Assembly: GCA_014360825.1 (NCBI GenBank)
Contig: JACIWT010000002.1
Span: 14,782 to 78,781, forward strand
DNA: 64,000 nucleotides
Direction of reading: 5' to 3'
Source: Chloroflexota bacterium
Lineage (GTDB): Bacteria > Chloroflexota > Anaerolineae > UBA2200 > JACIWT01
Position 1 is the first letter of the stretch. The number at the start of each line of letters is the position of its first letter. Below the pieces are notes generated by a model. It searched no databases, was not told where the DNA came from, and saw nothing but the letters and a program-made list of their open reading frames with translations. The position numbers and the translations under genes are program-made. Positions 10,004-39,422 of this stretch are shown piece by piece.

Positions 10004-10065
10004 ATGCTATTTACACAAACTGGTTGTGAGACAAATGTCTGCAATTGGCGTGCAACCTATTGTAG

Positions 10066-10148: not shown

Positions 10149-10192
10149 AAAATGAAAAGAGCAGCCTCGCTACCAGCCCCAAAAACATACAG

Positions 10193-10264: not shown

Positions 10265-10268
10265 CCAC

Positions 10269-10343: not shown

Positions 10344-10348
10344 CCATA

Positions 10349-10421
10349 TGCCGAGGCCCAGAATTGAACTGGGGACACCTTGATTTTCAGTCAAGTGCTC
10401 TACCATCTGAGCTACCTCGGC
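10349..10421 (-). tRNA. tRNA-Phe (anticodon GAA)
   Basis: Reverse complement GCCGAGGTAGCTCAGATGGTAGAGCACTTGACTGAAAATCAAGGTGTCCCCAGTTCAATTCTGGGCCTCGGCA. Confidence 0.85.
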
Positions 10422-11982: not shown

Positions 11983-12021
11983 CAGTAGGAGTTACATCCC
12001 ACATTTCTACAAGGAGGTGAT

Positions 12022-12399: not shown

Positions 12400-12415
12400 C
12401 CGAGGAGCCGACCCA

Positions 12416-14548: not shown

Positions 14549-14579
14549 TGAAAAGGTGACCTGTGGTGAGGAGGAAGAT

Positions 14580-14957
14580 ATGGCAAAGATTCTAATTGTG
14601 GATGATGACCCAGATTTTGTGGAAGCCACGCGTATGACTCTGGAAGCCAATGGTTACCAGGTGATCAGCGCTGGCAGCGGAGATGAGGGCCTGGCCAAAG
14701 TGAAAGCAGAAGCACCAGACTTGGTGATCCTGGATGTGATCATGTCATCGGTGTTAGATGGCTTGAGCATGAGCCAGCGCATGCAGGAGAACCCAGAGCA
14801 TAAGAGAATCCCTATTTTGATGGTTACCTCTATTGCCAACACGGACTACGCAGCGCTGTTCCCGACTGACGAATACATTAGCATCGATGGCTTTCTCTCT
14901 AAGCCAGTGCCACCGGCTGTCTTGTTGCAACGCGTTGCGGAACTGTTGGGTCGGTAA
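14580..14957 (+). CDS. single-domain response regulator receiver protein (REC paralog D)
   Basis: KILIVDDDPDF, ILDVIMS, TSIA, FPTDEY, SKPV. ATG preceded by GAGGAGGAAG. Confidence 0.85.
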   Translation: MAKILIVDDDPDFVEATRMTLEANGYQVISAGSGDEGLAKVKAEAPDLVILDVIMSSVLDGLSMSQRMQENPEHKRIPILMVTSIANTDYAALFPTDEYISIDGFLSKPVPPAVLLQRVAELLGR

Positions 14958-22531: not shown

Positions 22532-23128
22532 CTATGATTGGCTGTGCAGTAACCTTTTGGCCATTTCTAAATCTTCCGCAGTGTTGATGTTAAAGAAAGA
22601 GAGATGCTTAGGATCAAGAGTATCTACTTCGCTCTCCGTAACATATCGCACCCTCACCTCGGGGAAAAAACTCACAATGCGCCGTTCTCCAGAGCGTAGC
22701 AACTTCTCGATTGGCCGCATACACGCTTTGCTGTAAACGGCGTGCAGTGGCTCTGTCTTGCCGTAGGTGCTCGGGATCACCACATCGAAATCGGCGGACA
22801 ATAGAATTATATACCGCAGGAGCGGTAGGTTCAACAAGGGCATGTCGCAGGCCACAAACAGTCCTCGCTCATAGCGCATCGCCCGCAAACCGGTATAGAT
22901 GCCACCCAGAGGACCTGTGTCTGGATAAGCATCTGGGATACTGCGAGCCCGCATCCCTGCGAATTCTGGTCTTGCGTTCGCCACCACCAAGAGGTCATCG
23001 CTCAAGGCGCTCATAGTATTGAGGATGCGCTCCAGCAGCCACTCACCATCTATCTTGAGCAGGGCTTTGTCCACGCCCAGACGCTGACTCTTTCCACCCG
23101 CTAGCACTACTGCGCTGACTTTCAGCAT
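22532..23128 (-). CDS. mobA: molybdenum cofactor guanylyltransferase MobA
   Basis: AVVLAGGKSQRLGVDKALL N-terminal NTP-transferase motif. Confidence 0.8.
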   Translation of the reverse strand: MLKVSAVVLAGGKSQRLGVDKALLKIDGEWLLERILNTMSALSDDLLVVANARPEFAGMRARSIPDAYPDTGPLGGIYTGLRAMRYERGLFVACDMPLLNLPLLRYIILLSADFDVVIPSTYGKTEPLHAVYSKACMRPIEKLLRSGERRIVSFFPEVRVRYVTESEVDTLDPKHLSFFNINTAEDLEMAKRLLHSQS

Positions 23129-23137
23129 AATCTCTTC

Positions 23138-23914
23138 TCAAGGTGTACTCTGGAGTTCCTGGGGATTAAGGTTTTGCCCGAGCGTCTCCAGAATTCCAGA
23201 TATACGATGAGGATGTGTGTAGACGGTGAACCTGTCGCCTCTGGCAAAGCAGACGAGCGTTACCCCAGACCTATCAGCCAACAATATCCCTGCGTCTGTT
23301 GAAGCCGCTTTAGATATGATAATCGGGACGCCCGCGTTGGCAACTTTGGCGATCATACCTGCTGGTTGCCTGCCGGTGCAGCCGATGACGCATCTGGAGA
23401 GATCTATGTCATGGAGGAGAGCAAAACCTACCACCTTGTCAATAGTATTGTGTCTTCCAATATCACTGCTGCGCGCAACCAACTCTCCGCCTTGGAAAAG
23501 TACAGAGCAGTGGACGCCGCCTGTCTTCTTCCAGATCTCCGACTCGATCTGTCCGATGATTCTGAATACATCTTCCTGCTCAATGACGAGGGGTGAGTGT
23601 ACAACCCTGGGCAACCCCCTTACGCCAATACAACCCGAAGACCTGAGTTCGTAGTCAACTTCTATCTCGGTTGGTGCATACACCCTTATGTCGTTTGCAA
23701 AGACGCGGACCTCGGTAATGTCTTGGGCTAGCCCCTCACACACCACAAACCCTGCCCCTAACTCTTCTAGTTGATCAGGGCTAGCAACGATCTGGGCAAG
23801 CGGTGCGTCGTTCAGGTATAAGCGAAAAGTGTCTTCAGTGCAGACTACATCCTTGAACGGTGTGATTGTATTCCCCTTTACTTGAATGGCCGCATGTCCT
23901 TCGTAGAGCCTCAT
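23138..23914 (-). CDS. fdhD: formate dehydrogenase accessory sulfurtransferase FdhD
   Basis: Conserved SSGCIGV Cys loop and C-terminal FdhD fold. ATG preceded by AGGAGG. Confidence 0.85.
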   Translation of the reverse strand: MRLYEGHAAIQVKGNTITPFKDVVCTEDTFRLYLNDAPLAQIVASPDQLEELGAGFVVCEGLAQDITEVRVFANDIRVYAPTEIEVDYELRSSGCIGVRGLPRVVHSPLVIEQEDVFRIIGQIESEIWKKTGGVHCSVLFQGGELVARSSDIGRHNTIDKVVGFALLHDIDLSRCVIGCTGRQPAGMIAKVANAGVPIIISKAASTDAGILLADRSGVTLVCFARGDRFTVYTHPHRISGILETLGQNLNPQELQSTP

Positions 23915-24040: not shown

Positions 24041-24817
24041 TTACTTCAGGCCGTATAACCACCAGTAGATGGTGCCTACGAAAAAGCCGCCCCCAATGAT
24101 ATTTCCGATGGTCACCGGCAGGAGGTTGGCTACGAAGAAGTTGACCCAGTTCGCCTGGGTTGCCCCGTAGAAAATGCCCAGCGGGATGAAATACATGTTG
24201 GCGATGCTGTGCTCAAAGCCGATGGCCACGAAGGCCATGATTGGGAACCAGATGCCCAGGATCTTGCCAGCGATATCCTCCGCAGAGACAGCCAACCAGA
24301 CTGCCAGGCAGACCAGCCAGTTGCAACCGATGCCCCGCCAGAGCGCTTGGGCAAACGTGAGGGCTACCTTGCTGTCGGCAATCCCCCTTACACCGGTCAA
24401 GAACGGGTCCTTGGCAAAAATACCGCCGGCGTAACACAAGTAGGCCAGGAAGATAGAGCCAATGAGGTTGCCAATGTAAACAAGCACCCAGTTCCTGGCT
24501 AGTCCTGACCACTTAGAAACGCCCTTGTAGCAACCTGGGGGCACGAGGGCGGTGTTGCCGGTGAAGAGTTCCGAACCGGCGATGATCACAAGCATCAGGC
24601 CGACCGGGAAGGTGCCACCAAAGACCAACTTGGATAGCCCTACTAACTCGGGGGCCGTGATGCCTTTGCCGGTGGCGATGGCCACCGTGCCGCCGAAGGC
24701 GATGTAAGCGCCGGCCAAGAAACCAAGCACTAACAGTCTAAGTGGTTCGGTTTCGGTCTTGGCCTGGGAGATGGCGCATGCCGCCTCGACGATTTCAGCG
24801 GGTTTTTTGAAGCTCAT
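24041..24817 (-). CDS. focA: formate/nitrite transporter family channel (FocA-like)
   Basis: FNT-family six-TM pattern. SD AAGGAGGG. Possible promoter TTGAAG -17- TAATCT at 24867-24839 (minus). Confidence 0.85.
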   Translation of the reverse strand: MSFKKPAEIVEAACAISQAKTETEPLRLLVLGFLAGAYIAFGGTVAIATGKGITAPELVGLSKLVFGGTFPVGLMLVIIAGSELFTGNTALVPPGCYKGVSKWSGLARNWVLVYIGNLIGSIFLAYLCYAGGIFAKDPFLTGVRGIADSKVALTFAQALWRGIGCNWLVCLAVWLAVSAEDIAGKILGIWFPIMAFVAIGFEHSIANMYFIPLGIFYGATQANWVNFFVANLLPVTIGNIIGGGFFVGTIYWWLYGLK

Positions 24818-25012: not shown

Positions 25013-25053
25013 AGCAGTGGGAGCGAAATATTTCATTTCTCGCTCCCACTGCT
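25013..25053. other. long near-perfect inverted repeat (about 14-17 bp arms) immediately downstream of the fdhA stop; no U-tract
   Basis: AGCAGTGGGAGCGAAAT...ATTTCTCGCTCCCACTGCT. Confidence 0.35.
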
Positions 25054-25059: not shown

Positions 25060-27828
25060 TCATGCCTTCTCGATGCGGACAGCCGCCACCTTATACTCTG
25101 GGATTTTTGACACCGGATCTAGCGCAGCGATAGTCAGCAGGTTCGCTGCGGCTTCACGGAAGTGGAAGGTCATGAACACCACCCCTGGATCCGGTCGGTC
25201 AACCACCTCCGCCTTGGCTACGACTTCGCCACGGCGTGAAGTGACTCGCACTAGATCACCGTCCACAATACCCAATCTCTCGGCATCCCTGGGGTTGATC
25301 TCCACTGTGCCCTCAGGATAGAGCTGGTTCAGGCCGGGGATACGGCGGGTGATGGTACCGCTGTGATAGTGATACAGCACGCGCCCTGTGGTCAGCACGA
25401 GGGGATATTTCTTATCTGGCACTTCCTTCGCTGGTGCCCACTCTACCGCGTGGAACTTGCCCAGTCCGCGTGAGAATTTGCCCACATGCAAAATTGGCGT
25501 GCCCGGATGATCGGGAGCGGGACAAGGCCACTGTAATCCGACCTGCTCAATCCGATCATAGGTGATGCCCCCGTAACTTGGCGTCACAGCGTTGATTTCA
25601 GCCATGATCTCGCGTGGGTGTGTGTAGTCCCAACTGGCGAACTTTGCCTTCGATCTATCTATGCCCAGACGCGCTTCGACTCGCTTGGCTAAATCACAGA
25701 TGATCTGCCAGTCGGGGCGGGCGTTGCCTATGGGCTCGATGGCCTTGCGTACCCGCTGTACACGGCGTTCCGTGTTGGTGAAAGTGCCATCTTTCTCGGC
25801 GAAGGACACCCCAGGCAACACTACGTCGGCCAATTCCGCGGTCTCGCTCATGAAGATTTCCTGTACCACCAGAAAATCCAGACTTTGCAGGCATTTGCGG
25901 ACGTGGTTGATGTCGGGATCGGTCATCATCGGGTTCTCGCCGAGGACGAACAAGGCTTTAATGTCGCCGGCCTCGGCAGCATTGATCATCTCCACGACAG
26001 TGAGGCCAGGCTCTGTAGATGCGGTGCTGCCCCATGCTTCTTTGAACTTGGCTTGTGCTGCTTCATCTGCAACCCTCTGATATCCGGGGTAAAAGTTCGG
26101 CAAGCAGCCCATGTCACAGGCACCTTACACATTGTTTTGGCCGCGCAGGGGGTTCACTCCACCCCCAGGCACCCCCATGTTGCCAAGGAGCATTTGCAAA
26201 TTGGCCGTAGAGAGCACATTCTGGTGCCCTTTGGTGTGTTGGGTGATACCCATAGCGTAGATCAGTGCCCCAGGGCGGTTAACCGCGAGCAGTCGTGCCG
26301 CCTTGCGGACATCATCCGCTGGCACGCCAGTGATCTCTTCCGCATATTCTGGCGTGTACTTCTCCAGAACTGTCTTGAGTTCTTCAAAGCCTTCTGTGCG
26401 GTTGGCTACGAACTCTTTATCGTACAGATCCTCGGCGATCAACACATGCATGATGCCGTTCAGTAGGGCAATATCAGATCCCGGCTTATGCTTAAGGTGA
26501 AGGACGGCGACGTCGGCCAGTGGAATATCGCGTGGATCGGCCAAGATCAACTTGGCTCCGTTACGCGCCGCCTGTCGGAGGCGCATGCCAATCACCGGAT
26601 GTTGCTCCGTGGTGTTAGAACCGATTACCAAATAGGACTTTGCTTGGGTGGTAATATCCTCAATGGAGTTCGTCATAGCACCCGAACCGAACGCGGCGGC
26701 CAGACCGGTCACCGTGGAGGAGTGTCAAAGACGAGCGCAGTGGTCAACGTTGTTCGTCCCCAGCACCGCTCGAGTGAACTTCTGGAGGAGATAATTCTCC
26801 TCGTTGGTGCATTTGGCGGAACTGAGGACGGCGATAGCGTCGCCACCATGCTTTTTCTTAGTCTCTGCGATTTTCTCAGCCACCAGGTCTAGAGCCTCGT
26901 CCCAAGAGGCTTCGACGAACTTCCCGTTTCGTTTGATCAGCGGGGCTACTAACCGATCGGGATGATTCACAAAATCGTAGCCGAACCGGCCCTTCACACA
27001 AGTCCAGCCGTGATTGACAGGAGCATCCCAATAGGACGTTACCCGAATGATTTTGCCGTCCCTTACGTTGAGGTCAAACTGGCAACCGACGCCGCAATAG
27101 CCACAAGTAGTGGTAACCTTTTTCATTTCCCAAGTGCGTCCCAGTCCTTTAGCGCCTTTAGGTGAAAGGGCACCCGTGGGACATACTTCCACACACATGC
27201 CACAGAATTCACAAGGTGAGTCCTCAAGATAGCCATCTTTTGCTGTACCAGGTTTGGCCCGGAAGCCACGATACAGCATTGAAATGGCCTCAACACCGTT
27301 GATGTAACTGCAAGCGCGCACACAGGCCTGGCATACCACACATTTATTGTAGTCTCGCTCAATGAAAGGGTTGGGGTCGCTGATAGGATAGTGATGCTCC
27401 TCACCCCGATAGGGCGACTCTTTGATGCCCAACTCATAGGCGAGATCCTAAAGCGTGCAGTTGCCCGCCTTCTCGCAAGTCATGCAGTCGAGCGGATGGT
27501 CTGAAAGCAATAATTCCAAAACAAAGCGGCGCAGCGCCACGATACCGGGGGTATGCGTCTTAATGCGTATACCTTCTGCCACGGGATAGGTACATGAGGT
27601 CTGAAAGGATGTAACATAGGTGGTCTCAGTGGTCCCATCAGCGTTTTGCTTGACACGAGGAATCCCTACTTCCACCAAACAGAGGCGACACGCTCCAATA
27701 TCAGGCAGAGCAGGATGATGACACAGGGTGGGGATCTTGATTCCCATGGCGGTGGCTGCTTTAAGGATTGTGTTACCCTCTTCCACTTCCACTGCCCGGT
27801 CATCGATTGTGAATCTAATCAGTGGCAT
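25060..27828 (-). pseudogene. fdhA: NAD-type formate dehydrogenase alpha subunit (FdsA/FdhA; NuoG-like 2Fe-2S/4Fe-4S N-domain + molybdopterin domain), selenocysteine at TGA 26727-26725; two further in-frame stops (TAG 27450-27448, TAA 26127-26125) at conserved Gln positions
   Basis: The four track ORFs are contiguous and in one frame. CTL(TAG)DLAYELG aligns to C.LQ; CARL(TGA)HSSTVTGL aligns to FdhF CARV-U-HGPSVAGL; GQNNV(TAA)GACDMG aligns to GQNNVQGACDMG. Confidence 0.75.
26694..26714 (-). promoter_or_regulatory. candidate bacterial SECIS hairpin 11 nt downstream of the fdhA UGA codon
   Basis: mRNA CGGUGACC-GGUCU-GGCCGCCG: 8-bp stem with one mismatch and a GGUCU apical loop containing the G-U typical of fdhF-type SECIS. 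Confidence 0.4.
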
Positions 27829-28318
27829 CGATCTCCTCCCGCTTTGTCAGTTGTAAGATCTGTTCAACCGCTGGTTGCACCAGCGTCTCAGTGGCCGTAG
27901 AAAGGCCACGGTGGAAATCGAACTCGTAACCCCGGATAGACACAATGTGGCCCGTAGGCTTTCGATGGTGGAGTGCATCGAGCAACGCAAGGAGCATCGC
28001 TGGATTCATGTGGTGGGTGAACGCAGACGCGGCATATTCCGGCAGCACGTGCGCGCAATGCAGATCATCCAGGTCTTCGCGGATGTGTGCATCCACGAAG
28101 ACGATTTGATCGTAGTCCACCAGCAGGTCCACCAATTCGGGCGATAATTGCATGAGAAAAACAGAATCTGTCTGAGCGCCGAGTGCTTCTAAGCCCGTTT
28201 CGTCTTCATGCAGAATCTCTTGCCCCAGGCGCTGGCGCAGGCTGTTGATCGCATAGTATGCAACGCCATCATCGGCGCGGTCCAGATTGCCGTAGCCAAT
28301 GACCAGGGAGCGAGGCAT
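27815..28318 (-). CDS. hoxW: [NiFe] hydrogenase maturation endopeptidase (HoxW/HycI-like)
   Basis: IGYGNLDRADDGVA N-term motif and conserved Asp/His metal ligands. Confidence 0.8.
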   Translation of the reverse strand: MPRSLVIGYGNLDRADDGVAYYAINSLRQRLGQEILHEDETGLEALGAQTDSVFLMQLSPELVDLLVDYDQIVFVDAHIREDLDDLHCAHVLPEYAASAFTHHMNPAMLLALLDALHHRKPTGHIVSIRGYEFDFHRGLSTATETLVQPAVEQILQLTKREEIDATD

Positions 28319-28405
28319 CAGACCCCCACCAAAGTGACAAAGAGGGCAAGGGAGCGAACCGGTTTATGTTCGCCCCCTTGCGTTGGGCTCGTCCAGGCTG
28401 TTACA

Positions 28406-29833
28406 CTAACGAGCGATGCGATCCAGCACAGTGCCATCGGCTGCCACCAGGGTGATCTCCAGCGGCATTTGGCCGATAGCGTGGGTGGAGCATGAGAGGC
28501 ATGGATCGTAGCAGCGGATCGCTGCTTCCACTCGGTTGAGCATACCTTCGGTGAGTTTCGTGCCGTCCACACAGGCCTTGGCCACCATCCCTGCGGATGT
28601 GTGCATAGCCCAGTTGTTGTTGCCCGTGGCTACGATGAGGTTCACCCTAGTCAATAGGCCGTTCTCGTCGGTGTCATAGTCGTGGAAGAGGGTCCCTCTG
28701 GGGGCCTCGATCACGCCCACTCCGTGGCCAGTTACCTTTGTTCCGGGATAAGCGCGCACGTCGGTGGACATGATATCTGGATCATCCAGCAACTCGCCGA
28801 TGTGCTCCAAAGCGTAGAGAGCTTCGATCAGTCGGGCATAGTGGTAGTACAGGGAGCCCTCCACTGGCTTGCCGTTATTGATTTTCTTGAATTGCCGGAA
28901 TTCTTCATCGGCCAGGGGTGTGCCGATCTTGTCCACAACGTTCAGACGTCCCAATGGGCCCACCCGATATGCTCCTTGTGGCCACCCTAATTTGCGGTAA
29001 TAGGGGAACTTTAGGAAGGACCAGGGTTCCACGTGTTCGGCTACGTACTCTAAGTAGTCGTTTGGCTTGAATTGTGCGAGCAACTTGCCTTGGGCATCCC
29101 TAACGCGGATCTCACCGTCGTAGAGTTGAAGCCCGCCTTCCTTATCCACCAGACCCATGTAGTTAGATGGGAAGGAGGCGAAAGTATTTGCTAGTTCCTT
29201 GTTAGCCTCCAGCCAGCCCTTGGCGATACCAATCGCCTCTTGGACGTAGCTGACCATGGTCTCGCGTTCGGCGGCGATCTCATCGCGGTCCTTTGCACTG
29301 AGTGGCGCGCTTACCCCACCGGGGACGGCGAAGTAAGGATGCACGCGCTTCCGGCCAAGCCGCTCGATGATCTGCTGCCCGTAGCGGCGTAGGTTCACCG
29401 CTTTCAGAGCCAGTTCGGGGTTTGCCTTGATGATTCCAAATACATTCCGGGTAGCCGGATCGGCGTCAAACCCGAAGACTAGATCGGGTGCAGCCAAGTG
29501 GAAGAAATGCATGCAATGCGACTGTACCACTTGACCCATGTGCATCAGTTCCCGCAGCAGTTTGGCCGGACGTGGCGGCTCTACACCGGCCACGCCGTCG
29601 CAGGCTTTGGCTGAGGCCAAATGGTGGCTGACCGGACAGATGCCGCAGATGCGCTGGGTGATTTGCGTCATCTCGAAATATGGGCGGCCTTCGCTAAATT
29701 TCTCCACCCCGCGAAACTCGTCCACGTGGAAGAAAGTCTGCTGTACTTTGCCCTTGTCGTCCAAATGGATCGTGACCCGCGCATGTCCCTCAATGCGCGT
29801 CACTGGTTCGATGGTTATTTTTTGAGCACCCAT
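28406..29833 (-). CDS. hoxH: [NiFe] hydrogenase large subunit, group 3 (HoxH-like)
   Basis: N-terminal RICGICPVSH and C-terminal DPCLSCSTHA (protease cleavage after His). Confidence 0.9.
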   Translation of the reverse strand: MGAQKITIEPVTRIEGHARVTIHLDDKGKVQQTFFHVDEFRGVEKFSEGRPYFEMTQITQRICGICPVSHHLASAKACDGVAGVEPPRPAKLLRELMHMGQVVQSHCMHFFHLAAPDLVFGFDADPATRNVFGIIKANPELALKAVNLRRYGQQIIERLGRKRVHPYFAVPGGVSAPLSAKDRDEIAAERETMVSYVQEAIGIAKGWLEANKELANTFASFPSNYMGLVDKEGGLQLYDGEIRVRDAQGKLLAQFKPNDYLEYVAEHVEPWSFLKFPYYRKLGWPQGAYRVGPLGRLNVVDKIGTPLADEEFRQFKKINNGKPVEGSLYYHYARLIEALYALEHIGELLDDPDIMSTDVRAYPGTKVTGHGVGVIEAPRGTLFHDYDTDENGLLTRVNLIVATGNNNWAMHTSAGMVAKACVDGTKLTEGMLNRVEAAIRCYDPCLSCSTHAIGQMPLEITLVAADGTVLDRIAR

Positions 29834-29845
29834 AGTGTTCTCCTC

Positions 29846-30391
29846 TTAGTCATACTTGAAATGCTCAGGTGGCAGAATCACAGGCATGCGTCCCGCGAGC
29901 AACTCTGAAAGCGCGTAGAAAAGGGCGTCTGCACTGGGTGGGCAACCGGGGATGAAAAGATCCACCTTTACCACCTTATCAACGCCTGTAACTACATCCA
30001 GCGGCATTCCGAGTTCTGGTGAATCGGGAATGACGCCGTCCACAACGCTCTCAGCCTCTAAGTAAGCGCGCTTTAACGCCGCTTCGGTGCCAACCAGATT
30101 GCGCGAGGCGACAATGCCACCAAAGGTAGCGCAGTCACCCACTGCGATGAGGATTTTGCAGCGTTCACGCATTCTCTTGGCCACCTCAACATTGTGCGTG
30201 TTACTGATCGCACCGGTGAGGATGCCAACGGTTACGCCGTCTTCTGGCGGATGCTTTAGGTCTGTGACCGGGCTTGATGTGAATTCCACCGCTTCCAGCA
30301 ACTGGACAATGCGTTCGTCAATGTCCAGTAACGACATGTGACATCCTGCACAGGCGGCTAGCCAATCCGTGGCGACTTTGACTTTTGCCAT
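29846..30391 (-). CDS. hoxY: [NiFe] hydrogenase small subunit, group 3 (HoxY-like)
   Basis: ACAGCHMS proximal-cluster Cys motif, GDCATFGG, IPGCPP. ATG after AAGGAGA (the track ORF extends 6 codons further upstream). Confidence 0.85.
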   Translation of the reverse strand: MAKVKVATDWLAACAGCHMSLLDIDERIVQLLEAVEFTSSPVTDLKHPPEDGVTVGILTGAISNTHNVEVAKRMRERCKILIAVGDCATFGGIVASRNLVGTEAALKRAYLEAESVVDGVIPDSPELGMPLDVVTGVDKVVKVDLFIPGCPPSADALFYALSELLAGRMPVILPPEHFKYD

Positions 30392-30405
30392 CGTGGGTTC
30401 TCCTT

Positions 30406-32187
30406 TCACTCAAGTTCCCGGGCTGCACGAGCCGAGATCTCGTCGAGGGTGCCGAAACTCTTGCCCAGTTTCCCTGCCAGCAGGGAGAGGATCTCCCAGT
30501 CTGGCTTTGCTTCTCCCTTGGGTTCGACTGCCTTATTGACCTGCTGCACACGACCCTCTATGTTCGTCAGGGTGCCTTCTCGCTCTGACCAGATAGCCAT
30601 GGGCAGCACTACGTCTGCCTTCTTGGTCAGGGGCGATTCATAACTAGTCTGCACAACGACAAATGCATTGGGGCCGAATTGTTTGAGCATATCCTTGCCG
30701 TCCCAATCCTGCTCGCCGACGAGGACAAACACTGTTTCGGCGGAGGATGGATCGAACCCGTTGCTCAACCCGAAGGCCGCGGCAGCGTATGTATTCACGC
30801 CGGGTTCAAGCGCGATGAAGACGGCCTTTTCACCCAACTTCCCTAACGCTTTGATGGTCTTATCTGTGATAGCGGGACCATACAGAACCACTGGATGCAC
30901 GGCACGCTCTGCTAGTTCTACAGCCTTATTGACCTCGTCCATCTTCAAGTGCATGGAGGCGAATGGAGCAAGGCCATTGTCCTTGCTGTCCACTATGATC
31001 AGCCGTGCCCCTTTATCGACAGCGCGCTTGACGAGAAAAGAAGCAACCGGCTGGTCTTTAGCGGGATCTGCACTAACCACAAGGATGATATCACTCGTGG
31101 TGACATCTGCGAGTGAGCCTCCTGACTTCTCCGACAACTTCGTTGCAACCCCGTTGAGCAGGCCAATGTTGGTGACCCTCAATTCCTCACGGAACAACTT
31201 GCCCAGTAGGTATAGCGCCTCGTTGGTAGCGTTGGTTGTGGTTAATACGCCCAGATTCTTGCCTTTGGTGCTACGAATTTGCTCGGCAAGTGCTTCCAAG
31301 GCTGTGTCCCAATCCGTCTCCTTTAACTTGCCGTTTTGCCGGAGCAAGGGTTTGGTTACACGCTGGCGCTCATCGTAGAGCGGGTTGAAGCGCCCTGCCT
31401 GGCAAAGTAGCCCTGCGTTCACAGGGGCGTCCCAATCCCCTTCGATGCGCAAGACGTTGCCACCGCGCGTTACGATCTCCATACCGCAGCCGATACTGCA
31501 CTGGCTGCAGACGCTCTTAATGTGCTCCGTCTCGACATCACGCCCCATAAAGGCACTGCGTTTGTCAACCAGAGCGCCGGTGGGACACACTTGCAAACAG
31601 GTGCCGCAAGAGACACAGGACGATTGGCCGAAGGGAACGTTCATATCGGCGTGGATCATGGACTCTGCACCACGTTGCCGTACGCCCAAGGTGTGATTCG
31701 CCACCAGTTCACTGCAGGCGCGCACGCATCGTCTGCATAGAATGCAACGGTTGTGATCCATAAGGAAATAAGCACGTGTCGCATCCACAGGGAACCGCTT
31801 TGTGTAGGTAGGATAAACCCAGTGGTCAACGCCGTAGCGGTACCCCAGAGACTGCAATTCGCAGTCCCCGCTCATCTCACAGTACATGCAGTAGTGGTTT
31901 CGCTCCGAAAAAAGCAGGTCGAGAACGAATTTTCGTGCTTGAACCACCTGTGGGGACTCGGTCTGCACCTCCATTCCCTCTGTAACGGGGAATGTACATG
32001 CCGTCTGCAAAGTGCGTTGTCCCTTGATCTCTACGAGACACATTCGGCAAGCACCGATTGGGGCCAGAGCAGGGTGGTGACAAAGAGTCGGGATGTCAAT
32101 CCCTGCCCCCTGTGCGGCCTCAAGAACGGTGCTGCCGGCCGGCGCACTGACCTTTTGGCCGTTGATTGTGATATTGACCATTGCCAT
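30406..32187 (-). CDS. NuoG-like iron-sulfur subunit (2Fe-2S plant-type + 4Fe-4S clusters + NuoG C-terminal domain, no Mo/Sec site)
   Basis: CHHPALAPIGACRMC, CEMSGDCELQ, CILCRRCVRAC, CVSCGTCLQVCP. The molybdopterin-ligand motif is replaced by NATNEAL. Confidence 0.85.
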   Translation of the reverse strand: MAMVNITINGQKVSAPAGSTVLEAAQGAGIDIPTLCHHPALAPIGACRMCLVEIKGQRTLQTACTFPVTEGMEVQTESPQVVQARKFVLDLLFSERNHYCMYCEMSGDCELQSLGYRYGVDHWVYPTYTKRFPVDATRAYFLMDHNRCILCRRCVRACSELVANHTLGVRQRGAESMIHADMNVPFGQSSCVSCGTCLQVCPTGALVDKRSAFMGRDVETEHIKSVCSQCSIGCGMEIVTRGGNVLRIEGDWDAPVNAGLLCQAGRFNPLYDERQRVTKPLLRQNGKLKETDWDTALEALAEQIRSTKGKNLGVLTTTNATNEALYLLGKLFREELRVTNIGLLNGVATKLSEKSGGSLADVTTSDIILVVSADPAKDQPVASFLVKRAVDKGARLIIVDSKDNGLAPFASMHLKMDEVNKAVELAERAVHPVVLYGPAITDKTIKALGKLGEKAVFIALEPGVNTYAAAAFGLSNGFDPSSAETVFVLVGEQDWDGKDMLKQFGPNAFVVVQTSYESPLTKKADVVLPMAIWSEREGTLTNIEGRVQQVNKAVEPKGEAKPDWEILSLLAGKLGKSFGTLDEISARAARELE

Positions 32188-32299
32188 CTCAGAGCCCAGC
32201 CTCCTTTCTAAGTTTTATTTTAGGTTATCTTTTGGCTGGGGAAAAGTCGCCATTGACATCTCCCCTACCCTGTGCGCCATATTCCGTTGTTTTCGGAGC

Positions 32300-35200
32300 C
32301 TAAAACTCTTCCAGGTCGCAGCGCAGACAGCGCTTGGCTTCCTCACGCGCTATTTCCTCGCTGAATCCCAACTCGATCTCGTGGAAATTCTTGACCCGCT
32401 CCGGCGGTGCCTGAGTTGGCATCTCAGGCCGTTTCGCCTCAGCATACTCTTCGCGGTTATAGGTCAGTTCAACCGTGCGATAGGCCAGCCATTCTTCTTT
32501 GGATTGTGGGTGGCCATCCTGCAAGTATTCATCCACCGCCATGGCCACCTTGTTGCCTTGTGCTACTGCCTCGATCACGGTTGCAGGACCCAGCACCGCG
32601 TCGCCAGCAGCGAAGGCACCCGGCCGCGAGGTATCCAGTTTCCTGCCCACCTTGAACGTGGAATCGCGGTTCACCTCTGGGCTATCACCGTTCAGGCACG
32701 ACAAATCGGGTGACTGCCCAATGGCCGGAATGACGATATCCACGTCCATGACATACCCTGCTCCTTCGATGGGCACTGGCCGGCGTCTCCCGCTCTTGTC
32801 GAATTCGCCCAATTCCTGTGGTTGTAGTTCCAGCCCCGTGACTTTCGTGTCTCCTAAGACGCGGATGGGATTGGTCAGGAAATGGAACTGGACGCCCTCT
32901 TCTTCCGCCTCTCGTACTTCAAGGTCTTGCGCCGGCATCTCCGCCCGTGTGCGGCGGTAGATGATGTGCACTTCGGAGGCGCCCAGACGGAGGGCTGTCC
33001 GCGCAGCATCGATGGCGGAGTTACCCCCGCCAACCACAGCCACGCGTTTGCCTTTCATCTTGGGTGGCTTACCGAGCGCTACATCCTTCAGGAACGCGGT
33101 AGCGTGCATGACCCCGCTCAAGTCTTCGCCAGGCACACCCAGTCGGCGGCTGCTGTGCGCACCGATCGCCAGGATGACCGCGTGATAGCCCATTTTATCA
33201 AATAACTCATCCAAAGTAAAGTCTTTGCCTAACGCCGTGTTCAATACGATCTCCACGCCGGCGCGCTTGATGTGGTCGATCTCGGCGTTGAGCACATCGC
33301 GTGGCAGGCGGTATTCTGGAATGCCTAAAGCCATCCACCCGCCGGCAACGGGTGCTGCTTCGTAGACGGTTACTTTGTAGCCCCATTGTGCCAGGCGCAA
33401 AGCCGCTGTCAGGCCGGCTGGCCCTGCGCCTACGATGGCAACCTTCTCCGTCTTGGCTTCTTCGTTGCGTGGCGGTATCCATGGGTTCATAATCTCATGA
33501 TCTGCCATGAAGCGCTTCAATTGGCGGATGGCTACTGGCTGATCCAGTTCGCCGCGACGGCAGCGCCGCTCGCAGAAGGCTGGACAAATGCGCCCGCAGA
33601 TCAGGGCAAATGGGTTGCGCTGGCGATGTACTTCGAGCCCTTCGGCGTATTTGCCCTGGCTGATCAGGGCCACATAACTGGGGACATCCACGCCTGCAGG
33701 GCAGGCATTGGTGCACGGTGCTCTGACCAGCGCTTTGCACACCCCGGCCGGACAGCGCTTGTCTAAGATATGTGCCTCGAACTCCTCGCGGAAATAGCGC
33801 AACGCGGCTTTTACCGGACCTGGGGTGAGTTGGCCCAGCGCGCACAACGAAGCCGATTCCATGCCCTGTGCGATTTGTTGGATGGTGTCCAGGTCCTGCA
33901 TCGTTCCTTTGCCTTCCGTGATGCGAGTCAGCACTTCCAACAGGCGCTTACCGCCAACTCGGCAGGGCACACATTTGCCACAGGATTCGGCCGTAGCAAA
34001 GTCCAGGAAGAATTTGGCGAACTCGACCATGCAGGTAGTCTCATCTACCACGATCATGCCGCCGGAACCCATCACTGCGCCCACTTCCTTGAGCGAGTCA
34101 AAATCTACTGGCACATTGAGCGCTTCGACGCCCAGGCAGCCGCCCAATGGGCCACCGGTCTGCACGGCCTTGAATTTCTTGCCGTCGGGGACTCCCCCAC
34201 CGATGTCAAAGATGATTTCGCCCAACGTGATGCCCATCGGCACCTCGACCAAGCCGGTGTTATTGATCTTGCCCGTTAAGGCAAAGATGGCTGTTCCGGT
34301 GCTGCGCGGTGTGCCGATGCTGCTGAACCAATCTGCACCTTTGAGGATGATTTGCGGTACATTGGCGTAACTCTTGACGTTGTTGATATTGCTGGGCTTA
34401 CCCCACAGGCCGGAGACAGCGGGGAAGGGTGGCCTGGGGCGAGGCTCACCACGGCGACCCTCAATGGATGCCATCAGGGCCGTTTCCTCTCCGCAGACGA
34501 AAGCGCCGGCGCCCTCTTTCAGTGTCAGGTGGAAAGTATGTCCGCTTCCCAAGATGTTTTCGCCCAGCAATCCGTATTCGTGGCACTGCTCAATCGCCAT
34601 CTTGATGCGCTTAATGGCCAGAGGATACTCGGCACGGCAATAAATGTAGCCCTGATGCGCACCGATGGCATAACTGGCAATGATCATCCCCTCAATGACA
34701 CTGTGGGGGTCTCCCTCCAGTATGCTGCGGTCCATAAATGCACCGGGGTCCCCTTCGTCCGCGTTGCAAATGAGGTACTTCGGCTCGCCTCGTGCTTTGC
34801 GGCAGAACTCCCATTTCAGACCGGTGAGGAAGCCTGCCCCGCCGCGCCCGCGTAAGCCAGACCGTTTGACCTCCTCAATAACTTGGTCTGGGGTCATCTC
34901 CGATAGCGCCTTGCTCAGCGCGGCATAGCCGTCTCGGGCGATGTACTCATCAATGCTTTCGGGGTTGATCAGTCCACAGTTGCGCAGTGTGATGCGCAAC
35001 TGCTTCCCGTAGAAGGGTATGTCCTTGTAGAAGGGTACCGATTGGTGGGAGAATGGCTCTTTGTAAGTGAGGCGGGGGACGACCCTGCCCTTCACCAGCG
35101 TTTCTTCTACGAGGTGTGGTACATCCGAGGCTTGCACCTGGCAGTAGAAAATACCCTCTGGGTAAATGATCATAACGGGGCCCATCGCACAGAAGCCACG

Positions 35201-35350
35201 GCAGCCGGTTTGCACCAGTCGTACCTCGCCATCCAGCCCACGGCGTTTGATCTCCTCGGCTAAGGCCTCGAAAACCGCCGGGGATTTCGATGCTGTACAG
35301 CCCGTGCCGCCACAGACGAGCACGTTGGCTCTATATAAAGGTTCCGCCAT
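32300..35350 (-). CDS. triple-fusion flavoprotein: NuoE-like [2Fe-2S] + NuoF-like (NADH/FMN/[4Fe-4S]) + GltD/NfnB-like FAD/NAD(P)H pyridine-nucleotide oxidoreductase
   Basis: CGGTGCTASKS..CRGFCAMGP; GRGGAGFLTGLKW; CGEETALMASIEGRRGEPR; ESCGKCVPCRVG; two 4Fe-4S Cys motifs; VAIVGAGPAGLTAA and VAVVGGGNSAIDAA Rossmann motifs. ATG after GAGGA (the track ORF extends 23 codons further upstream). Confidence 0.85.
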   Translation of the reverse strand: MAEPLYRANVLVCGGTGCTASKSPAVFEALAEEIKRRGLDGEVRLVQTGCRGFCAMGPVMIIYPEGIFYCQVQASDVPHLVEETLVKGRVVPRLTYKEPFSHQSVPFYKDIPFYGKQLRITLRNCGLINPESIDEYIARDGYAALSKALSEMTPDQVIEEVKRSGLRGRGGAGFLTGLKWEFCRKARGEPKYLICNADEGDPGAFMDRSILEGDPHSVIEGMIIASYAIGAHQGYIYCRAEYPLAIKRIKMAIEQCHEYGLLGENILGSGHTFHLTLKEGAGAFVCGEETALMASIEGRRGEPRPRPPFPAVSGLWGKPSNINNVKSYANVPQIILKGADWFSSIGTPRSTGTAIFALTGKINNTGLVEVPMGITLGEIIFDIGGGVPDGKKFKAVQTGGPLGGCLGVEALNVPVDFDSLKEVGAVMGSGGMIVVDETTCMVEFAKFFLDFATAESCGKCVPCRVGGKRLLEVLTRITEGKGTMQDLDTIQQIAQGMESASLCALGQLTPGPVKAALRYFREEFEAHILDKRCPAGVCKALVRAPCTNACPAGVDVPSYVALISQGKYAEGLEVHRQRNPFALICGRICPAFCERRCRRGELDQPVAIRQLKRFMADHEIMNPWIPPRNEEAKTEKVAIVGAGPAGLTAALRLAQWGYKVTVYEAAPVAGGWMALGIPEYRLPRDVLNAEIDHIKRAGVEIVLNTALGKDFTLDELFDKMGYHAVILAIGAHSSRRLGVPGEDLSGVMHATAFLKDVALGKPPKMKGKRVAVVGGGNSAIDAARTALRLGASEVHIIYRRTRAEMPAQDLEVREAEEEGVQFHFLTNPIRVLGDTKVTGLELQPQELGEFDKSGRRRPVPIEGAGYVMDVDIVIPAIGQSPDLSCLNGDSPEVNRDSTFKVGRKLDTSRPGAFAAGDAVLGPATVIEAVAQGNKVAMAVDEYLQDGHPQSKEEWLAYRTVELTYNREEYAEAKRPEMPTQAPPERVKNFHEIELGFSEEIAREEAKRCLRCDLEEF

Positions 35351-35382
35351 TGAGATCCTCCTCGGGATACGAAGATATTTTT

Positions 35383-35763
35383 CTATTGTTCGCTGGTGGG
35401 CAGCCGACCTACTACCCACTCTTGCACTACATTGCCTTTGATTAAATGCTCCTCAATGAGCCGGGGCACCATATCTGGTTTGACGTTTCCGTACGTGATG
35501 CGTGGCTTGCCTGCCTGTTCGATATCCACCAACGGTTCTTTGACGCACATGCCAATGCATCCGACGGTGGTGACGTGGGCTTCGATCTCACGCTTCTTGA
35601 GTTCCTCAAGGATGGCGTGCATCGTCTCACGTGCTCCGGCAGCGATGCCGCAGGTGCCCATGCCGACGGTGATCTTGGTGCCTGTCTCCAGCCGTACCTT
35701 GAGGTCTTTTTGTGCTTCTTCGCGCAGTTTCTTTAGATCTTCTAAGGTCTTCAGTCTCGGCAT
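35383..35763 (-). CDS. thioredoxin-like [2Fe-2S] ferredoxin (HydC/NuoE-like small subunit)
   Basis: Cys motif GMGTCGIAAG ... VGCIGMCV. Confidence 0.7.
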   Translation of the reverse strand: MPRLKTLEDLKKLREEAQKDLKVRLETGTKITVGMGTCGIAAGARETMHAILEELKKREIEAHVTTVGCIGMCVKEPLVDIEQAGKPRITYGNVKPDMVPRLIEEHLIKGNVVQEWVVGRLPTSEQ

Positions 35764-35805
35764 TGAACAGCCTCCTCTGTGGATATATTTTCCGCAGCGA
35801 ATTGG

Positions 35806-36357
35806 TTATGGCCTGGGCCTATGCAGGCTCGCCAGCCCCTCAGCCAGCGTGGATTCCAGCCACTGCCTTATCAGTGGATGCGAGAGGGGCACTGTGCCCA
35901 ATTCGCGGCGCACTTCTGCTGTGTCCAGTTCAAACGTCCGACCATCCACAACGTGCTTGTAGCGGATGTCTACTGCCTGTTCCGAGAGAACCACTGCCAT
36001 TATGCTTGTGACGATATCGCCCAGCGGTGCGCGGTCAATGTGACTGTGTTGGAAAGTAGCCGTTACCTTCGTTCCTACCCCGGGCTTGGATTGTACCTGG
36101 AGATTGCCATTGCACTGTTGGGCTGCTGCCGCGAAGAGCGGCAATCCCAGACCGACGTGCCTGGTGGTACGTGTGGTAACGAAGGGGTCTAATACCCTCT
36201 GGGCGAACTCCTCATCCATGCCGCGCCCATTGTCTTGAATTGTGATCTTTAGGATATCGTTCTTCGTGTCCTCCTCGATGAGCAACTCAATGCGAGTTGC
36301 TCCCGCCTCCACCGAATTTTCCAGTGCATCGAGGATATGTAGGGAAAGTTCGCGCAC
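35806..36357 (-). CDS. histidine-kinase-like ATPase (HATPase_c only) protein
   Basis: N-box/G-box-like ITIQDNGRGMD ... HVGLGLPL with no HisKA domain. Confidence 0.7.
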   Translation of the reverse strand: MRELSLHILDALENSVEAGATRIELLIEEDTKNDILKITIQDNGRGMDEEFAQRVLDPFVTTRTTRHVGLGLPLFAAAAQQCNGNLQVQSKPGVGTKVTATFQHSHIDRAPLGDIVTSIMAVVLSEQAVDIRYKHVVDGRTFELDTAEVRRELGTVPLSHPLIRQWLESTLAEGLASLHRPRP

Positions 36358-36825
36358 TTAATGCAAATCTCTCACGATTTCGGTCATTCTTTCAGGGACC
36401 AGGTGTCCAACGACTTCGTTGTCCACCATCGCCGTAGGGGCCAGACCGCAAGATCCCAAACAGTAAACGACTTCATATGTTACCCGATAATCCGGCGTCG
36501 TTTCTCCGGCCTTAATGCCCAAGTCGTTTTCGACAGTCCTGATGATTTTGGCCGCGCCACGCACGTGGCAAGCGGTGCCGTCGCATTGACGGATGATGTG
36601 TTTGCCGCGCCTGGTCAGGTAGAATTGGGCATAGAAAGTTACCACGCCATACACCTGGCTCAATGGTACTCTCATGCGCTCAGAAATACGTTTCAGTACC
36701 TCGGCCGGCAGGTACCCGTAGATTTCTTGCGCCCGTTGCAACACGGGGATTACCGCTCCCTTCTGCGTTTGGAACTCTTCGAATATTGGCTCCAAACGAC
36801 TGAGGTCCAAGGTTTCTTCAGCCAC
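36358..36825 (-). CDS. NuoE/HydC-like thioredoxin-like [2Fe-2S] subunit (second copy)
   Basis: CDGTACHVRGA ... CLGSCGLAPTAMV. Confidence 0.85.
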   Translation of the reverse strand: MAEETLDLSRLEPIFEEFQTQKGAVIPVLQRAQEIYGYLPAEVLKRISERMRVPLSQVYGVVTFYAQFYLTRRGKHIIRQCDGTACHVRGAAKIIRTVENDLGIKAGETTPDYRVTYEVVYCLGSCGLAPTAMVDNEVVGHLVPERMTEIVRDLH

Positions 36826-36845: not shown

Positions 36846-37616
36846 CTAATGTGAATTGGCGAGTACTTTTACTTTTCGACCATTCTGACGGCGAAAGGCC
36901 ATCGAGATCTCCGTGAGGGTGGGCTCCTCAAGGGTAAATATGGTCCTGTCGCTTATCTCACTCAGACGGTGTGCATCGCCAGAACAGATGAACGAATGTG
37001 CCGCGAGTGATGGGTGTCGGCGCTGTATCTCCTCCACGCTGGTGTTACGCGTTATCTCCATAGCGGCGAAATGAACACCCGGTGGGACGAACCCCAGGTT
37101 CGCCAATAGACTGTAAGACGGACGATCTATATGTGCTGCGATGCAGAGCCCTTTCCGTTCCTCGACGCCTGAAACCACCTCTTCCACGGAGAGGGAAGTG
37201 GAGGTTGCCAGCAGCCTATCATTGTAACGGACAAAATCACCTGTGGCGTCCACTACAAACTGCGGGCCAAAAACTTCTGCCTTGTTTTTCAACATGGGCA
37301 GGTGAGCATATATCACTGCTTGCCAATCCAGCGCCCGCTCCACGGTATCAAAAAGACAAAGCAGATGAACCTCTTCTTTAGTTTGGACTTCCATACCTGG
37401 CAACACAGTCAGATCGAGTCCACACGCAGCCTCGATAACCGAGGCGACATTCTCTGCCGAGTTGTGATCGGTGATCGCAATGATGCCAAGGGCCAGTTCC
37501 CGTGCTTGCCGAACGATCAGAGGCGGTATCATTTCCACCTCGGCGCAAGCGGATAAAACTGTGTGCACATGCAGATCGGCTAGATAAGGTCTCAAGGCTC
37601 GTGTGTCATGCTCCAA
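36846..37616 (-). CDS. PHP-domain (polymerase/histidinol phosphatase-like) metal-dependent phosphoesterase
   Basis: LADLHVHTVLS ... ITDHNS His/Asp metal-ligand motifs. Confidence 0.8.
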   Translation of the reverse strand: MEHDTRALRPYLADLHVHTVLSACAEVEMIPPLIVRQARELALGIIAITDHNSAENVASVIEAACGLDLTVLPGMEVQTKEEVHLLCLFDTVERALDWQAVIYAHLPMLKNKAEVFGPQFVVDATGDFVRYNDRLLATSTSLSVEEVVSGVEERKGLCIAAHIDRPSYSLLANLGFVPPGVHFAAMEITRNTSVEEIQRRHPSLAAHSFICSGDAHRLSEISDRTIFTLEEPTLTEISMAFRRQNGRKVKVLANSH

Positions 37617-37639
37617 CTCTCATATATTTGCCCACAGGT

Positions 37640-37984
37640 CTATTCTGTGCCTTGGATTCCCAACCGGCTCAATTGGCCCACAATGGTGAACGTTGTGCGC
37701 GGCGTGGTAAGTATAGGGATCCCCTGCTCATTTGCCTTCTGCAATGTAGCGGCATCCGGAGATACCCCTTCGGTCACAATAATACCGGCTAGTTCGAGGA
37801 GTGCAGCCACAGCGACGATGTTGACATGCGACTGCAGGGTGACCCATACATTGCCCTTGCGCGCCTTGGCCATGACACAACTGAGCAGGTCAGAGGCATA
37901 CCCACCTGTTACCTCTGTGTCCAAGTTCTCACTCGCCGTCTGCACGGAAAGAGACAGCGCCTTTGCGATTTCACCTATTGTCAT
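37640..37984 (-). CDS. DRTGG-domain protein
   Basis: DRTGG-like Rossmann segment ...GNVWVTLQSHVNIVAVAALLELAGIIVTEG. Confidence 0.65.
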   Translation of the reverse strand: MTIGEIAKALSLSVQTASENLDTEVTGGYASDLLSCVMAKARKGNVWVTLQSHVNIVAVAALLELAGIIVTEGVSPDAATLQKANEQGIPILTTPRTTFTIVGQLSRLGIQGTE

Positions 37985-38009
37985 CGTGTTCCCTCGTGGT
38001 TACACAGCA

Positions 38010-38960
38010 TCACAGATTGATCAGGATCTCCAGGCGGGTTCCCACCCCAACTTTTGATTCCAGATGCATCTCGTCCGCACAGGCCTGGATGTTGTTTAAC
38101 CCCATCCCTGCGCCAAAGCCCAGTTCGCGGATCCAATCCGGGGCAGTAGAATAGCCCGGCTGCAGTGCTTTCTCGATGTCGGGGATGCCGGGGCCACTAT
38201 CCACCGCGACGATCCTGATCCTTTCTGGCTGGATTTCGGCGATGAGTTCCCCGCCTTTGGTGGTGTGAAGGACCAGGTTCGTCTCCGCCTCATAACTGGC
38301 CACGGCGATGCGACGCACTACAGCGGGCTTCGCTCCCAGTCGTTCCAAGGCGCGCTTTAACTTGCTGGCAGCCTCTCCACAGCCCACAAAGTCTAAAGGC
38401 TTTACCTTGTAGCGCAAAATCAGGCCGGTCTGGTCAGATGTGATGTCCTCAAAAATGTGGCTGGCCCGATAGCGATGGATTTCCTCTTCGTGATAATCAA
38501 CTTCCAATTGGCGAAGTAAGCCACGCGCGATATCTCCCTGCGTCACTATACCAACCAACTTTCCGTGCCGATTGACTACGGGGAGCCGTCCGAAACCGAA
38601 GCGAGCGAATTTATTCAGTGCCTGGACGACGGACTCATCAGCAAACACCGTTTGCACTTCAGTGCTCATTTTCTCGCCGACGGTAGCGTCTATATCGCCA
38701 GATTCGAGGGCTTTTATCAGGTCTTCGATGCTGATGATGCCAACTAGTTCGCCATCTCGCAGCACTGGGGTACCTGAAATGCGGTTGACCCGGAGCACCT
38801 CCTTCAACTGACGCATCGAATCGTCGGGAGATACGGTGATGACTTTCTTCGTCATGACCTGCTCAATCTTCAGTTCATATACCAGTTCTTGGAGCTTGGT
38901 TACTTCTCGGCTTGACTCGGTTGTTAACGTGCTTCTTGGTTCTTGACTGTTCGTGACCAC
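38010..38960 (-). CDS. CBS-pair + GHKL/HATPase-like (anti-sigma/Ser-kinase-like) protein
   Basis: Two CBS motifs (VITVSPDDSM..., GRLPVVNRHGKLVGIVTQGDI). C-terminal ATPase-like GxGxG region GFGAGMGLNNI. Confidence 0.7.
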   Translation of the reverse strand: MVTNSQEPRSTLTTESSREVTKLQELVYELKIEQVMTKKVITVSPDDSMRQLKEVLRVNRISGTPVLRDGELVGIISIEDLIKALESGDIDATVGEKMSTEVQTVFADESVVQALNKFARFGFGRLPVVNRHGKLVGIVTQGDIARGLLRQLEVDYHEEEIHRYRASHIFEDITSDQTGLILRYKVKPLDFVGCGEAASKLKRALERLGAKPAVVRRIAVASYEAETNLVLHTTKGGELIAEIQPERIRIVAVDSGPGIPDIEKALQPGYSTAPDWIRELGFGAGMGLNNIQACADEMHLESKVGVGTRLEILINL

Positions 38961-39020
38961 TGTCGTGAGCTCATTCTCTTGCCCAGGGACTAAGGTGATT
39001 CCGATTCGATGAACGATGGG

Positions 39021-39422
39021 CTACATGCCGCATGACGAAGGAGGATCATCGAGCCAGGTGCCTGCCGTCAACGGGAACAAACCACAACTTGGGAGTCCGG
39101 CCTGGTATAGTCGGCCACAGGTTTCGTACATCGTGTACTTGGAAGCGAGCAGTGGAATACCCTTCTCTTTGGCCAAAGCGATGGTCTCTGCAGGGGGCAA
39201 TTTGCCGCGCACGAAAACGATGGCCACGATGCCCGCCATTTCGGCGGTGCGCACAACCTGCGGGTTAGTCAAGCCGGTCATGAGCAAGGTGCCGGCATGG
39301 GTAAAAGCCAGGACGTCACTCATTAGGTCGGCACCACAGGCCATTTTCGCCTCGATGGAGAGATCAATCTCTGGCCAAAGTACCTTACCTTCGATGATTT
39401 GCAAAACCTCTCGTAAGGTCAT
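39021..39422 (-). CDS. DRTGG-domain protein (second copy)
   Basis: Paralogous to 37640-37984 (GADLMSDVLAF...GIVAIVFVRG). Confidence 0.65.
   Translation of the reverse strand: MTLREVLQIIEGKVLWPEIDLSIEAKMACGADLMSDVLAFTHAGTLLMTGLTNPQVVRTAEMAGIVAIVFVRGKLPPAETIALAKEKGIPLLASKYTMYETCGRLYQAGLPSCGLFPLTAGTWLDDPPSSCGM

Follow-up and report, generated by a model that had tools for sequence, protein, structure and literature searches.

A formate dehydrogenase gene with three in-frame stop codons in a Chloroflexota bacterium: an inherited selenocysteine codon and, very probably, two recent nonsense mutations

Is a bacterial gene that is interrupted in one frame by TAG, TGA and TAA recoded at all three codons, or is it broken? 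The question is raised by fdhA, a formate dehydrogenase gene on the minus strand of a 64-kb stretch of DNA from a Chloroflexota bacterium (GenBank assembly GCA_014360825.1, contig JACIWT010000002.1, positions 14,782 to 78,781), which was analysed at its full length and is called the window here. As predicted, FdhA would be the catalytic subunit of a cytoplasmic, NAD(P)-linked, selenocysteine (Sec)-containing molybdo/tungsto-pterin formate dehydrogenase, and its host an uncultivated, Anaerolineae-like member of the Chloroflexota in Shengli oil-field metagenomes. An initial annotation had left three options for the locus, namely a recent pseudogene, an artefact or nonsense suppression, and among these the evidence picks the recent pseudogene, through independent assemblies, a CAA/TAA polymorphism and relatives free of the stops. 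We consider it very probable that fdhA is a very young pseudogene that arose by two independent C-to-T nonsense mutations in Gln codons, the TGA being the ancestral Sec codon with its selenocysteine insertion sequence (SECIS).

Translation of the minus strand from 27900 to 25000 gives a single frame from an ATG at 27828 to a TGA at 25062-25060, with exactly three internal stops, TAG, TGA and TAA (Table 1), and no frameshifts; the four open reading frames (ORFs) that had been read as collinear are indeed pieces of this one frame of 922 codons. When all six frames are considered, a stop with 100 or more open codons to either side occurs only at these three places and at genuine gene boundaries. 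Once residues are supplied for the three codons, the 922-residue protein scores 896.4 bits against the TIGR01591 Fdh-alpha model over positions 1-672 (curated cutoff 666 bits), and the pieces match the Pfam domains Fer2_4, NADH-G_4Fe-4S_3, Fer4_Nqo3, Molybdop_Fe4S4 and Molybdopterin, which bears out the proposed fusion of a NuoG-type N-terminal domain to a molybdopterin formate dehydrogenase of about 920 residues. Formate dehydrogenases of known structure in the PDB, E. coli FdhH among them, can be aligned with its catalytic part over the full length, with matches down to an E-value of 1e-227 and 9t1s_L as the best. Both the catalytic motif DHCARL-TGA-HSS and the 4Fe-4S motif CGYCGVGC (CxxCxxxC) lie in the frame, and H369 and R366, which are invariant across 117 full-length homologues, are retained. 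A functional gene of this kind has a coding sequence that is open except at the Sec codon, and fdhA is closed in addition by the TAG at codon 127 and the TAA at codon 568. Judged from its sequence, the locus would be a member of the TIGR01591 family by descent and no longer a functional one.

The three stops behave differently in related genes. We compared codons at the DNA level in 80 relatives, taken as loci from a scan in which each species was represented by a single genome; the highest identity of a segment is 74% (L007, from an Anaerolineales metagenome-assembled genome, MAG). The catalytic position is TGA in 61 of them, Cys in 18 and Ser in one, and it is TGA in all of the closest Anaerolineales (L007, L015, L008-L010, L023 and L079). 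In the register of the PDB alignments the TGA corresponds to residue 140 of E. coli FdhH (1aa6), in agreement with the earlier placement at U140 of FdhF, and to the non-standard residue X of 9t1s_L. Downstream lies a hairpin whose GGUCU loop had been described correctly, although it starts 10 rather than 11 nucleotides past the TGA and its stem has seven base pairs and one A.C mismatch instead of eight pairs.

This hairpin is found in register in the 61 Sec-type relatives, where 87% of cells are paired and five of the eight pairs have changed on both sides; for instance, pair 18-30 is GC in 34 genes, CG in 16, AU in six and UA in three. The covariation score is 0.307, compared to 0.155 for shuffled data and at most 0.117 when the partners are slid. 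All six core pairs are formed in 57 of the 61 Sec-type genes and five in the other four, with the GGUCU loop present in 60, whereas Cys-type genes form only two to five core pairs and have GGUCU in 6 of 18. With five of six core pairs and the GGUCU loop, the window hairpin is among the weakest that still fit the Sec-type range. Its A.C mismatch may be early decay or tolerated variation, G.G being found at this pair in four other genes.

The possibility that the TGA is itself one more nonsense mutation, having arisen from TGC or TGT for Cys, has to be weighed against these results. The gene already has two nonsense mutations, and all 117 full-length homologues from the protein database have Cys at this site, but that set is biased, being entirely Cys-type since gene callers split Sec genes, and at the DNA level most relatives, including all of the nearest, have TGA. 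The local fold is no more stable than that of shuffled sequence (z = +2.05), so that thermodynamics alone says nothing, and the match to the Rfam family SECIS_3 (RF01989; 32.6 bits, E-value 6.5e-6, window positions 26672-26730, model positions 1-59) is below the gathering score of 63; at the gathering threshold only tRNAs were matched by Rfam. Against this stand the loop and the five covarying stem pairs that the window shares with Sec-type genes, and the fact that a change from Cys to TGA is a transversion, unlike the mutations to TAG and TAA. A third nonsense mutation is thus extremely unlikely, and the TGA is best read, from this comparison of sequences, as an inherited ancestral Sec codon. 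Within the 64-kb window no selA, selB, selC or selD was found, and its tRNAs are only those for Pro, Gly, Leu, Cys, Gly and Phe.

Two side observations concern the same family. The single relative with Ser at the Sec/Cys position (TCA; L068:5009, Thermodesulfobacteriota MAG11_tar_biofilm) has the divergent motif SHSSTETGL, and its protein may be an inactive or repurposed paralogue. Four others (L014, L018, L043 and L056, at about 6001-7000; several of them Bacillota) have a short NuoG-like gene of about 330 residues in tandem upstream of a Sec-type fdhA; apparent insertions of 1.2 kb in their FdhA were rejected as the merging by tblastn of this separate gene.

The TAG and TAA have no such history in the relatives. 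In the orthologue comparison that the initial annotation had proposed as a check, none of the 80 has a stop at codon 127 or 568. Codon 127 directly follows the fourth ligand of the His/Cys 4Fe-4S motif (HPLDCMTCEKAGNCTL-*), and among the 74 relatives that can be aligned there it is CAG in 54, CAA in seven, an Ala codon in eight and a Glu codon in five. That the TAG replaces the Gln of a C.LQ motif therefore holds, CELQ also occurring in the NuoG-like paralogue at 30406-32187 and Gln in 61 of the 74, but strict conservation does not, given Ala or Glu in 13. Position 127 is in this respect less strictly conserved than position 568, where Gln is found in 80 of 80, as had been supposed for the TAA. 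In the full-length homologues, position 127 is Gln in 66 and Glu in 51, and position 568 is Gln in all but one of the 117. The nearest Anaerolineales all have CAG, TGA and CAG at codons 127, Sec and 568. Gln is found at both sites in the nearest relatives, which are 74-77% identical; around codon 127 P0135 and P0136 read NCTLQDLAYELG and DCALQDLAYELE. A protein search with the N-terminal 367 residues returned more than 100 ORFs of 352-367 residues, which are Sec-type N-terminal halves that are open up to the Sec codon, and the two closest of them (77% and 75% identity) have Gln at 127 as part of C(T/A)LQDLAYEL.

We examined the locus in the Logan assemblies of three sequencing runs from two run series, SRR11866725, SRR11866715 and SRR28822788. 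The first of these belongs to the Shengli oil-field metagenomes (PMC9635834). Contigs of SRR11866725 and SRR11866715 match the window at 100% identity, over 15.5 kb and 8.1 kb, and both carry TAG and TAA; in them fdhA is gene-called as fragments of 126, 184, 195 and 350 residues. The 56.6-kb contig of SRR28822788 is 99.96% identical to the window over positions 10375-59193 (48.8 kb), with 18 single-nucleotide polymorphisms (SNPs). It keeps the TAG and has CAA at codon 568 (SRR28822788_9179), where a 550-residue ORF (P0020) runs from after the Sec codon to the natural end, so that everything after the TAG is open apart from the Sec codon. The TAG is thus present in all three runs and the TAA in two. 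As the initial annotation had it, both stops are single C-to-T changes: for the TAA this is seen directly because the sister population has the CAA allele, and for the TAG we infer it because the nearest relatives have CAG.

Since both changes are C-to-T, the signature of cytosine deamination, and since the source is a MAG, the stops might be artefacts of sequencing, assembly or DNA damage in what is truly an intact selenoprotein gene. However, an independent assembler recovers the TAG in three runs and the TAA in two, and no other gene of the window has such a lesion. The 18 SNPs between the contig with CAA and the window are mostly synonymous, which marks this contig as a distinct natural population rather than a cleaner set of reads, and it still has the TAG. 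Between 38 and 59 kb (38468-59193) the two differ by 15 SNPs, ten synonymous and five non-synonymous, which is the normal signature of diverging strains and not sequencing noise. An artefact is, on this evidence, highly improbable. Neither stop was seen in other populations in the collections examined, and two scans of Joint Genome Institute (JGI) metagenomes with the local DNA, with N at the mutated base of each site, gave no match. The hypothetical 367-residue N-terminal product in which codon 127 is Gln had no exact counterpart in the protein collection. At position 12481 the SRR11866715 contig (L089) has one synonymous difference from the window (ATC/ATT) in a response-regulator gene, so that some micro-heterogeneity exists even in this Shengli run series, which is elsewhere identical to the window.

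The neighbouring genes speak to the genetic code. An independent pipeline called 44 other genes between 10.4 and 58.4 kb of the window, all of them intact, of which 17 end in TGA, 14 in TAG and 13 in TAA. Since all three stops end neighbouring genes, the standard code applies and fdhA is the only damaged gene, in keeping with the earlier view that a recoded code was unlikely. Reassignment of TAG or TAA to Gln, or of TAG to pyrrolysine, was rejected, as these are ordinary terminators here and internal stops occur in no other gene.

A functional gene could still be reconciled with a standard code if the TAG, and in some strains the TAA, were subject to read-through or suppression, with Gln or some other residue inserted. 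The stops do lie exactly at Gln positions, the remainder of fdhA and its accessory genes are intact, and the TAG has persisted during the roughly 0.04% divergence of two populations. However, TAG and TAA terminate 27 of the 44 neighbouring genes, no tRNA with a CUA or UUA anticodon was found in the window, and neither stop occurs in any relative. The TAA is also polymorphic with CAA, which is typical of a new mutation rather than a programmed site, and neither stop lies in a known read-through context when the sequence is read against established knowledge. Suppression is accordingly quite improbable.

Alternatively, the gene might have been split into a 126-residue Fe-S fragment and a re-initiated product, starting for example at M186 or M234, that is active in the strain with the TAG only. 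The protein from M234 onward corresponds to the whole of E. coli FdhH (query 1-684 to chain 3-686), and the SRR28822788 allele is open past the TAG save for the Sec codon. But the TAG interrupts the PF10588 domain itself instead of a junction between domains, no relative is split at codon 127, and the internal ATGs, as read from the sequence, are not preceded by a convincing ribosome-binding site. Moreover, in the window lineage the invariant QNNVQG has since acquired the TAA, a sign that the downstream part is no longer under selection. Such a split is very unlikely.

A young pseudogene, by comparison, accommodates both stops, which as in other recent pseudogenes are absent from orthologues and either polymorphic or lineage-specific. 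The first hit would have been the change of CAG to TAG at codon 127, common to all sampled populations, which would end translation 126 residues in, within the NuoG-type His/Cys 4Fe-4S domain, and leave no formate dehydrogenase from the locus. The second, in the molybdopterin domain, would be later and is still polymorphic; it turns CAA into TAA at codon 568, within the invariant QNNVQGACD. This order is suggested by the distribution of the two stops among populations, and a later TAA is to be expected if the first hit took selection off the gene. The inactivation appears to be very recent, because there are no frameshifts and the departures from conserved positions are within the normal range: at 239 columns that are at least 95% conserved in the 117 homologues, the window FdhA differs, besides the Sec codon and the TAA, only by the substitutions L165V, T451S and S636T, all three conservative, where homologues tested alike have a median of two departures and a 75th percentile of five. 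FocA (MBC7263011) and the hydrogenase maturation protease (MBC7263012) that flank fdhA have consecutive NCBI accessions, and the deposited annotation therefore assigns fdhA no protein. The accumulation of SNPs as a measure of residual selection on fdhA was tried and dropped, with no synonymous change in 28 kb compared to ten in 21 kb.

Several points nevertheless weigh against inactivation. Neither the downstream genes focA, fdhD and mobA nor any part of the upstream module shows damage, and fdhA is otherwise pristine, as would also be expected of a gene that is still expressed. Low-level read-through or a minority CAG allele is compatible with data at the assembly level, and the two Shengli runs with the TAA may be related samples of one project, in which case their agreement is not fully independent.

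Table 1. Features of the fdhA locus, with coordinates given as window positions
Feature	Coordinates	Strand	Remarks
fdhA frame	25060..27828	-	922 codons; NuoG-like 2Fe-2S/4Fe-4S N-terminal domain and molybdopterin formate dehydrogenase catalytic domain
Premature TAG, codon 127	27448..27450	-	Present in every sampled population
TGA selenocysteine codon	26725..26727	-	Catalytic site, DHCARL-U-HSSTVTGL
SECIS hairpin	26694..26714	-	Stem CGGUGACC/GGCCGCCG; loop GGUCU at 26706-26702; 10 nucleotides past the TGA
Premature TAA, codon 568	26125..26127	-	RGQNNV-*-GACDMG; polymorphic with CAA
Hydrogenase maturation protease	27815..28318	-	TIGR00072, 52 bits; MBC7263012; intact; last 14 nucleotides overlap the fdhA start
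focA	24041-24817	-	Pfam/NCBIfam; intact, single terminal stop; downstream of fdhA
fdhD	23138-23914	-	Pfam/NCBIfam; intact, single terminal stop; downstream of fdhA
mobA	22532-23128	-	Pfam/NCBIfam; intact, single terminal stop; downstream of fdhA
Upstream module, same orientation	28406..36825	-	NuoE, HK-like ATPase, NuoE-like, NuoF-GltD fusion, NuoG/HoxU-like, HoxY, HoxH [NiFe] hydrogenase; intact

Along the minus strand the module from NuoE to HoxH is followed by the protease gene, fdhA, focA/fdhD/mobA, and then hypF, hypC, hypD and hypE. In the closest relative (L007:1349-8724), genes for NuoE, the HK-like ATPase, the NuoE-like protein and NuoF-GltD, 81-90% identical to those of the window, lead directly to fdhA. 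The window (28406-32187) differs from it by a block of NuoG/HoxU-like, HoxY, HoxH and protease genes between NuoF-GltD and fdhA, and the same diaphorase module appears to be common to the hydrogenase and the now-dead formate dehydrogenase. The NuoG/HoxU-like paralogue (30406-32187, minus strand, 593 residues) is about 44% identical to residues 1-430 of the L007 FdhA. Its molybdopterin domain is truncated and degenerate, with the Pfam Molybdopterin domain in two pieces and no Molydop_binding, and it is probably an Fe-S wire for the hydrogenase. The gene of the HK-like ATPase (35806-36357) lies between the two NuoE-like genes, and it is conserved in L007, L029, L080 and L082.

In the 10-38 kb part of the window only three SNPs separate it from SRR28822788 (21830, 26127 and 32616), and all are non-synonymous and lie in the H2/formate module: HypF P228S, FdhA Q568* and NuoF-GltD V912A, the last in a GVFAAGD motif where A912 is derived in the window, 12 relatives having V, I or F there. 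Given that 8 of the 18 SNPs are non-synonymous, three of three would occur by chance with a probability of about 0.07 (56/816, by hand calculation), which is suggestive only. The density of SNPs is very uneven along the contig and could reflect a recombination tract or a local sweep. Instead of neutral decay, the loss of FdhA could be one part of a remodelling, adaptive or under relaxed selection, that the formate/H2 module undergoes in the oil-field population. The three non-synonymous changes in the module and the hydrogenase block, inserted when L007 is the reference, would then suggest that the use of the NuoEF module is being moved from formate to H2. We consider this reading unlikely, and likewise, as a separate matter, that the TAG is partly read through, in which case some enzyme would still be made.

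Other features of the region are noted for completeness. Two long GC-rich palindromes on the minus strand (28346-28381 and 25013-25053) have a common GGGAGCGA/TCGCTCCC core. The first, which separates hoxH from the protease gene, has a T-rich tail behind it; the second lies 7 nucleotides past the fdhA stop and has no such tail. A repeated intergenic hairpin element is one possible reading of the pair, and structures that stabilise transcripts are another. Upstream of the NuoE-hydrogenase operon is a DRTGG / CBS-HATPase / DRTGG / PHP set (36846-39422, minus strand), which resembles the regulatory genes beside NuoEF-type hydrogenases of other anaerobes. A second NuoE (12832-13287) and NuoF (13280-14548) pair is found amid four response-regulator genes (11158-14957, plus strand), in a region that adjoins an Rrf2 regulator and a tRNA cluster for Phe, Gly, Cys and Leu (10065-10421).

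What looked like a triple recoding, with UGA, UAG and UAA in one gene, resolves to one Sec codon and two nonsense mutations. For annotation, the locus should be treated as a Sec-type fdhA pseudogene, and a metabolic reconstruction of this Chloroflexota MAG should give no credit for formate dehydrogenase from it. The locus offers a small, datable case of a second nonsense mutation following a first in a wild population, and a hint that, of the two enzymes with a common NuoEF module, just the neighbouring [NiFe] hydrogenase still makes use of it.

Among known systems, E. coli FdhH (FdhF; PDB IDs: 1AA6, 1FDO) has the same catalytic domain as the window FdhA (608 bits, aligned end to end), with Sec at the position equivalent to the window TGA. 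The E. coli fdhF SECIS has its GGUCU apical loop on the same Gly-Leu codons and at the same distance from the UGA as in the window. The Rfam SECIS_3 model, which matches the window over its full length from 3 nucleotides before the UGA, has the upper stem and loop in common with it, but the lower stem is not formed in the window and one upper-stem pair is the A.C mismatch. In contrast to FdhH, the window protein has an additional NuoG-like N-terminal domain of about 235 residues with a 2Fe-2S and several 4Fe-4S clusters, and its gene lies in a NuoE/NuoF-type rather than a formate-hydrogenlyase operon and has two nonsense codons.

A closer likeness is found in the FdhA-FdsA type, such as Rhodobacter capsulatus FdsA (PDB ID: 6TG9) and Bacillus YjgC (PDB ID: 8RQZ), which have the same NuoG-like N-terminus and molybdenum/tungsten bis-pyranopterin guanine dinucleotide (Mo/W-bisPGD) architecture, though FdsA is a Cys enzyme whereas the window FdhA is of the Sec type and inactivated. 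The clostridial HylABC-FdhF2 is a further NAD-linked, NuoEF-coupled formate dehydrogenase of this type. In most relatives, including the closest, fdhA directly follows nuoE and nuoF, where the window has its [NiFe] hydrogenase block in between. Ordinary nonsense pseudogenes likewise have stops that are lineage-specific, absent from relatives, polymorphic within the species and without recoding signals, and the window gene differs from them in that it already held a legitimate in-frame UGA, which lets it mimic multiple recoding. The locus is a new, inactivated member of the known FdhA/FdsA family, and its extra stops look no different from those of ordinary nonsense pseudogenisation.

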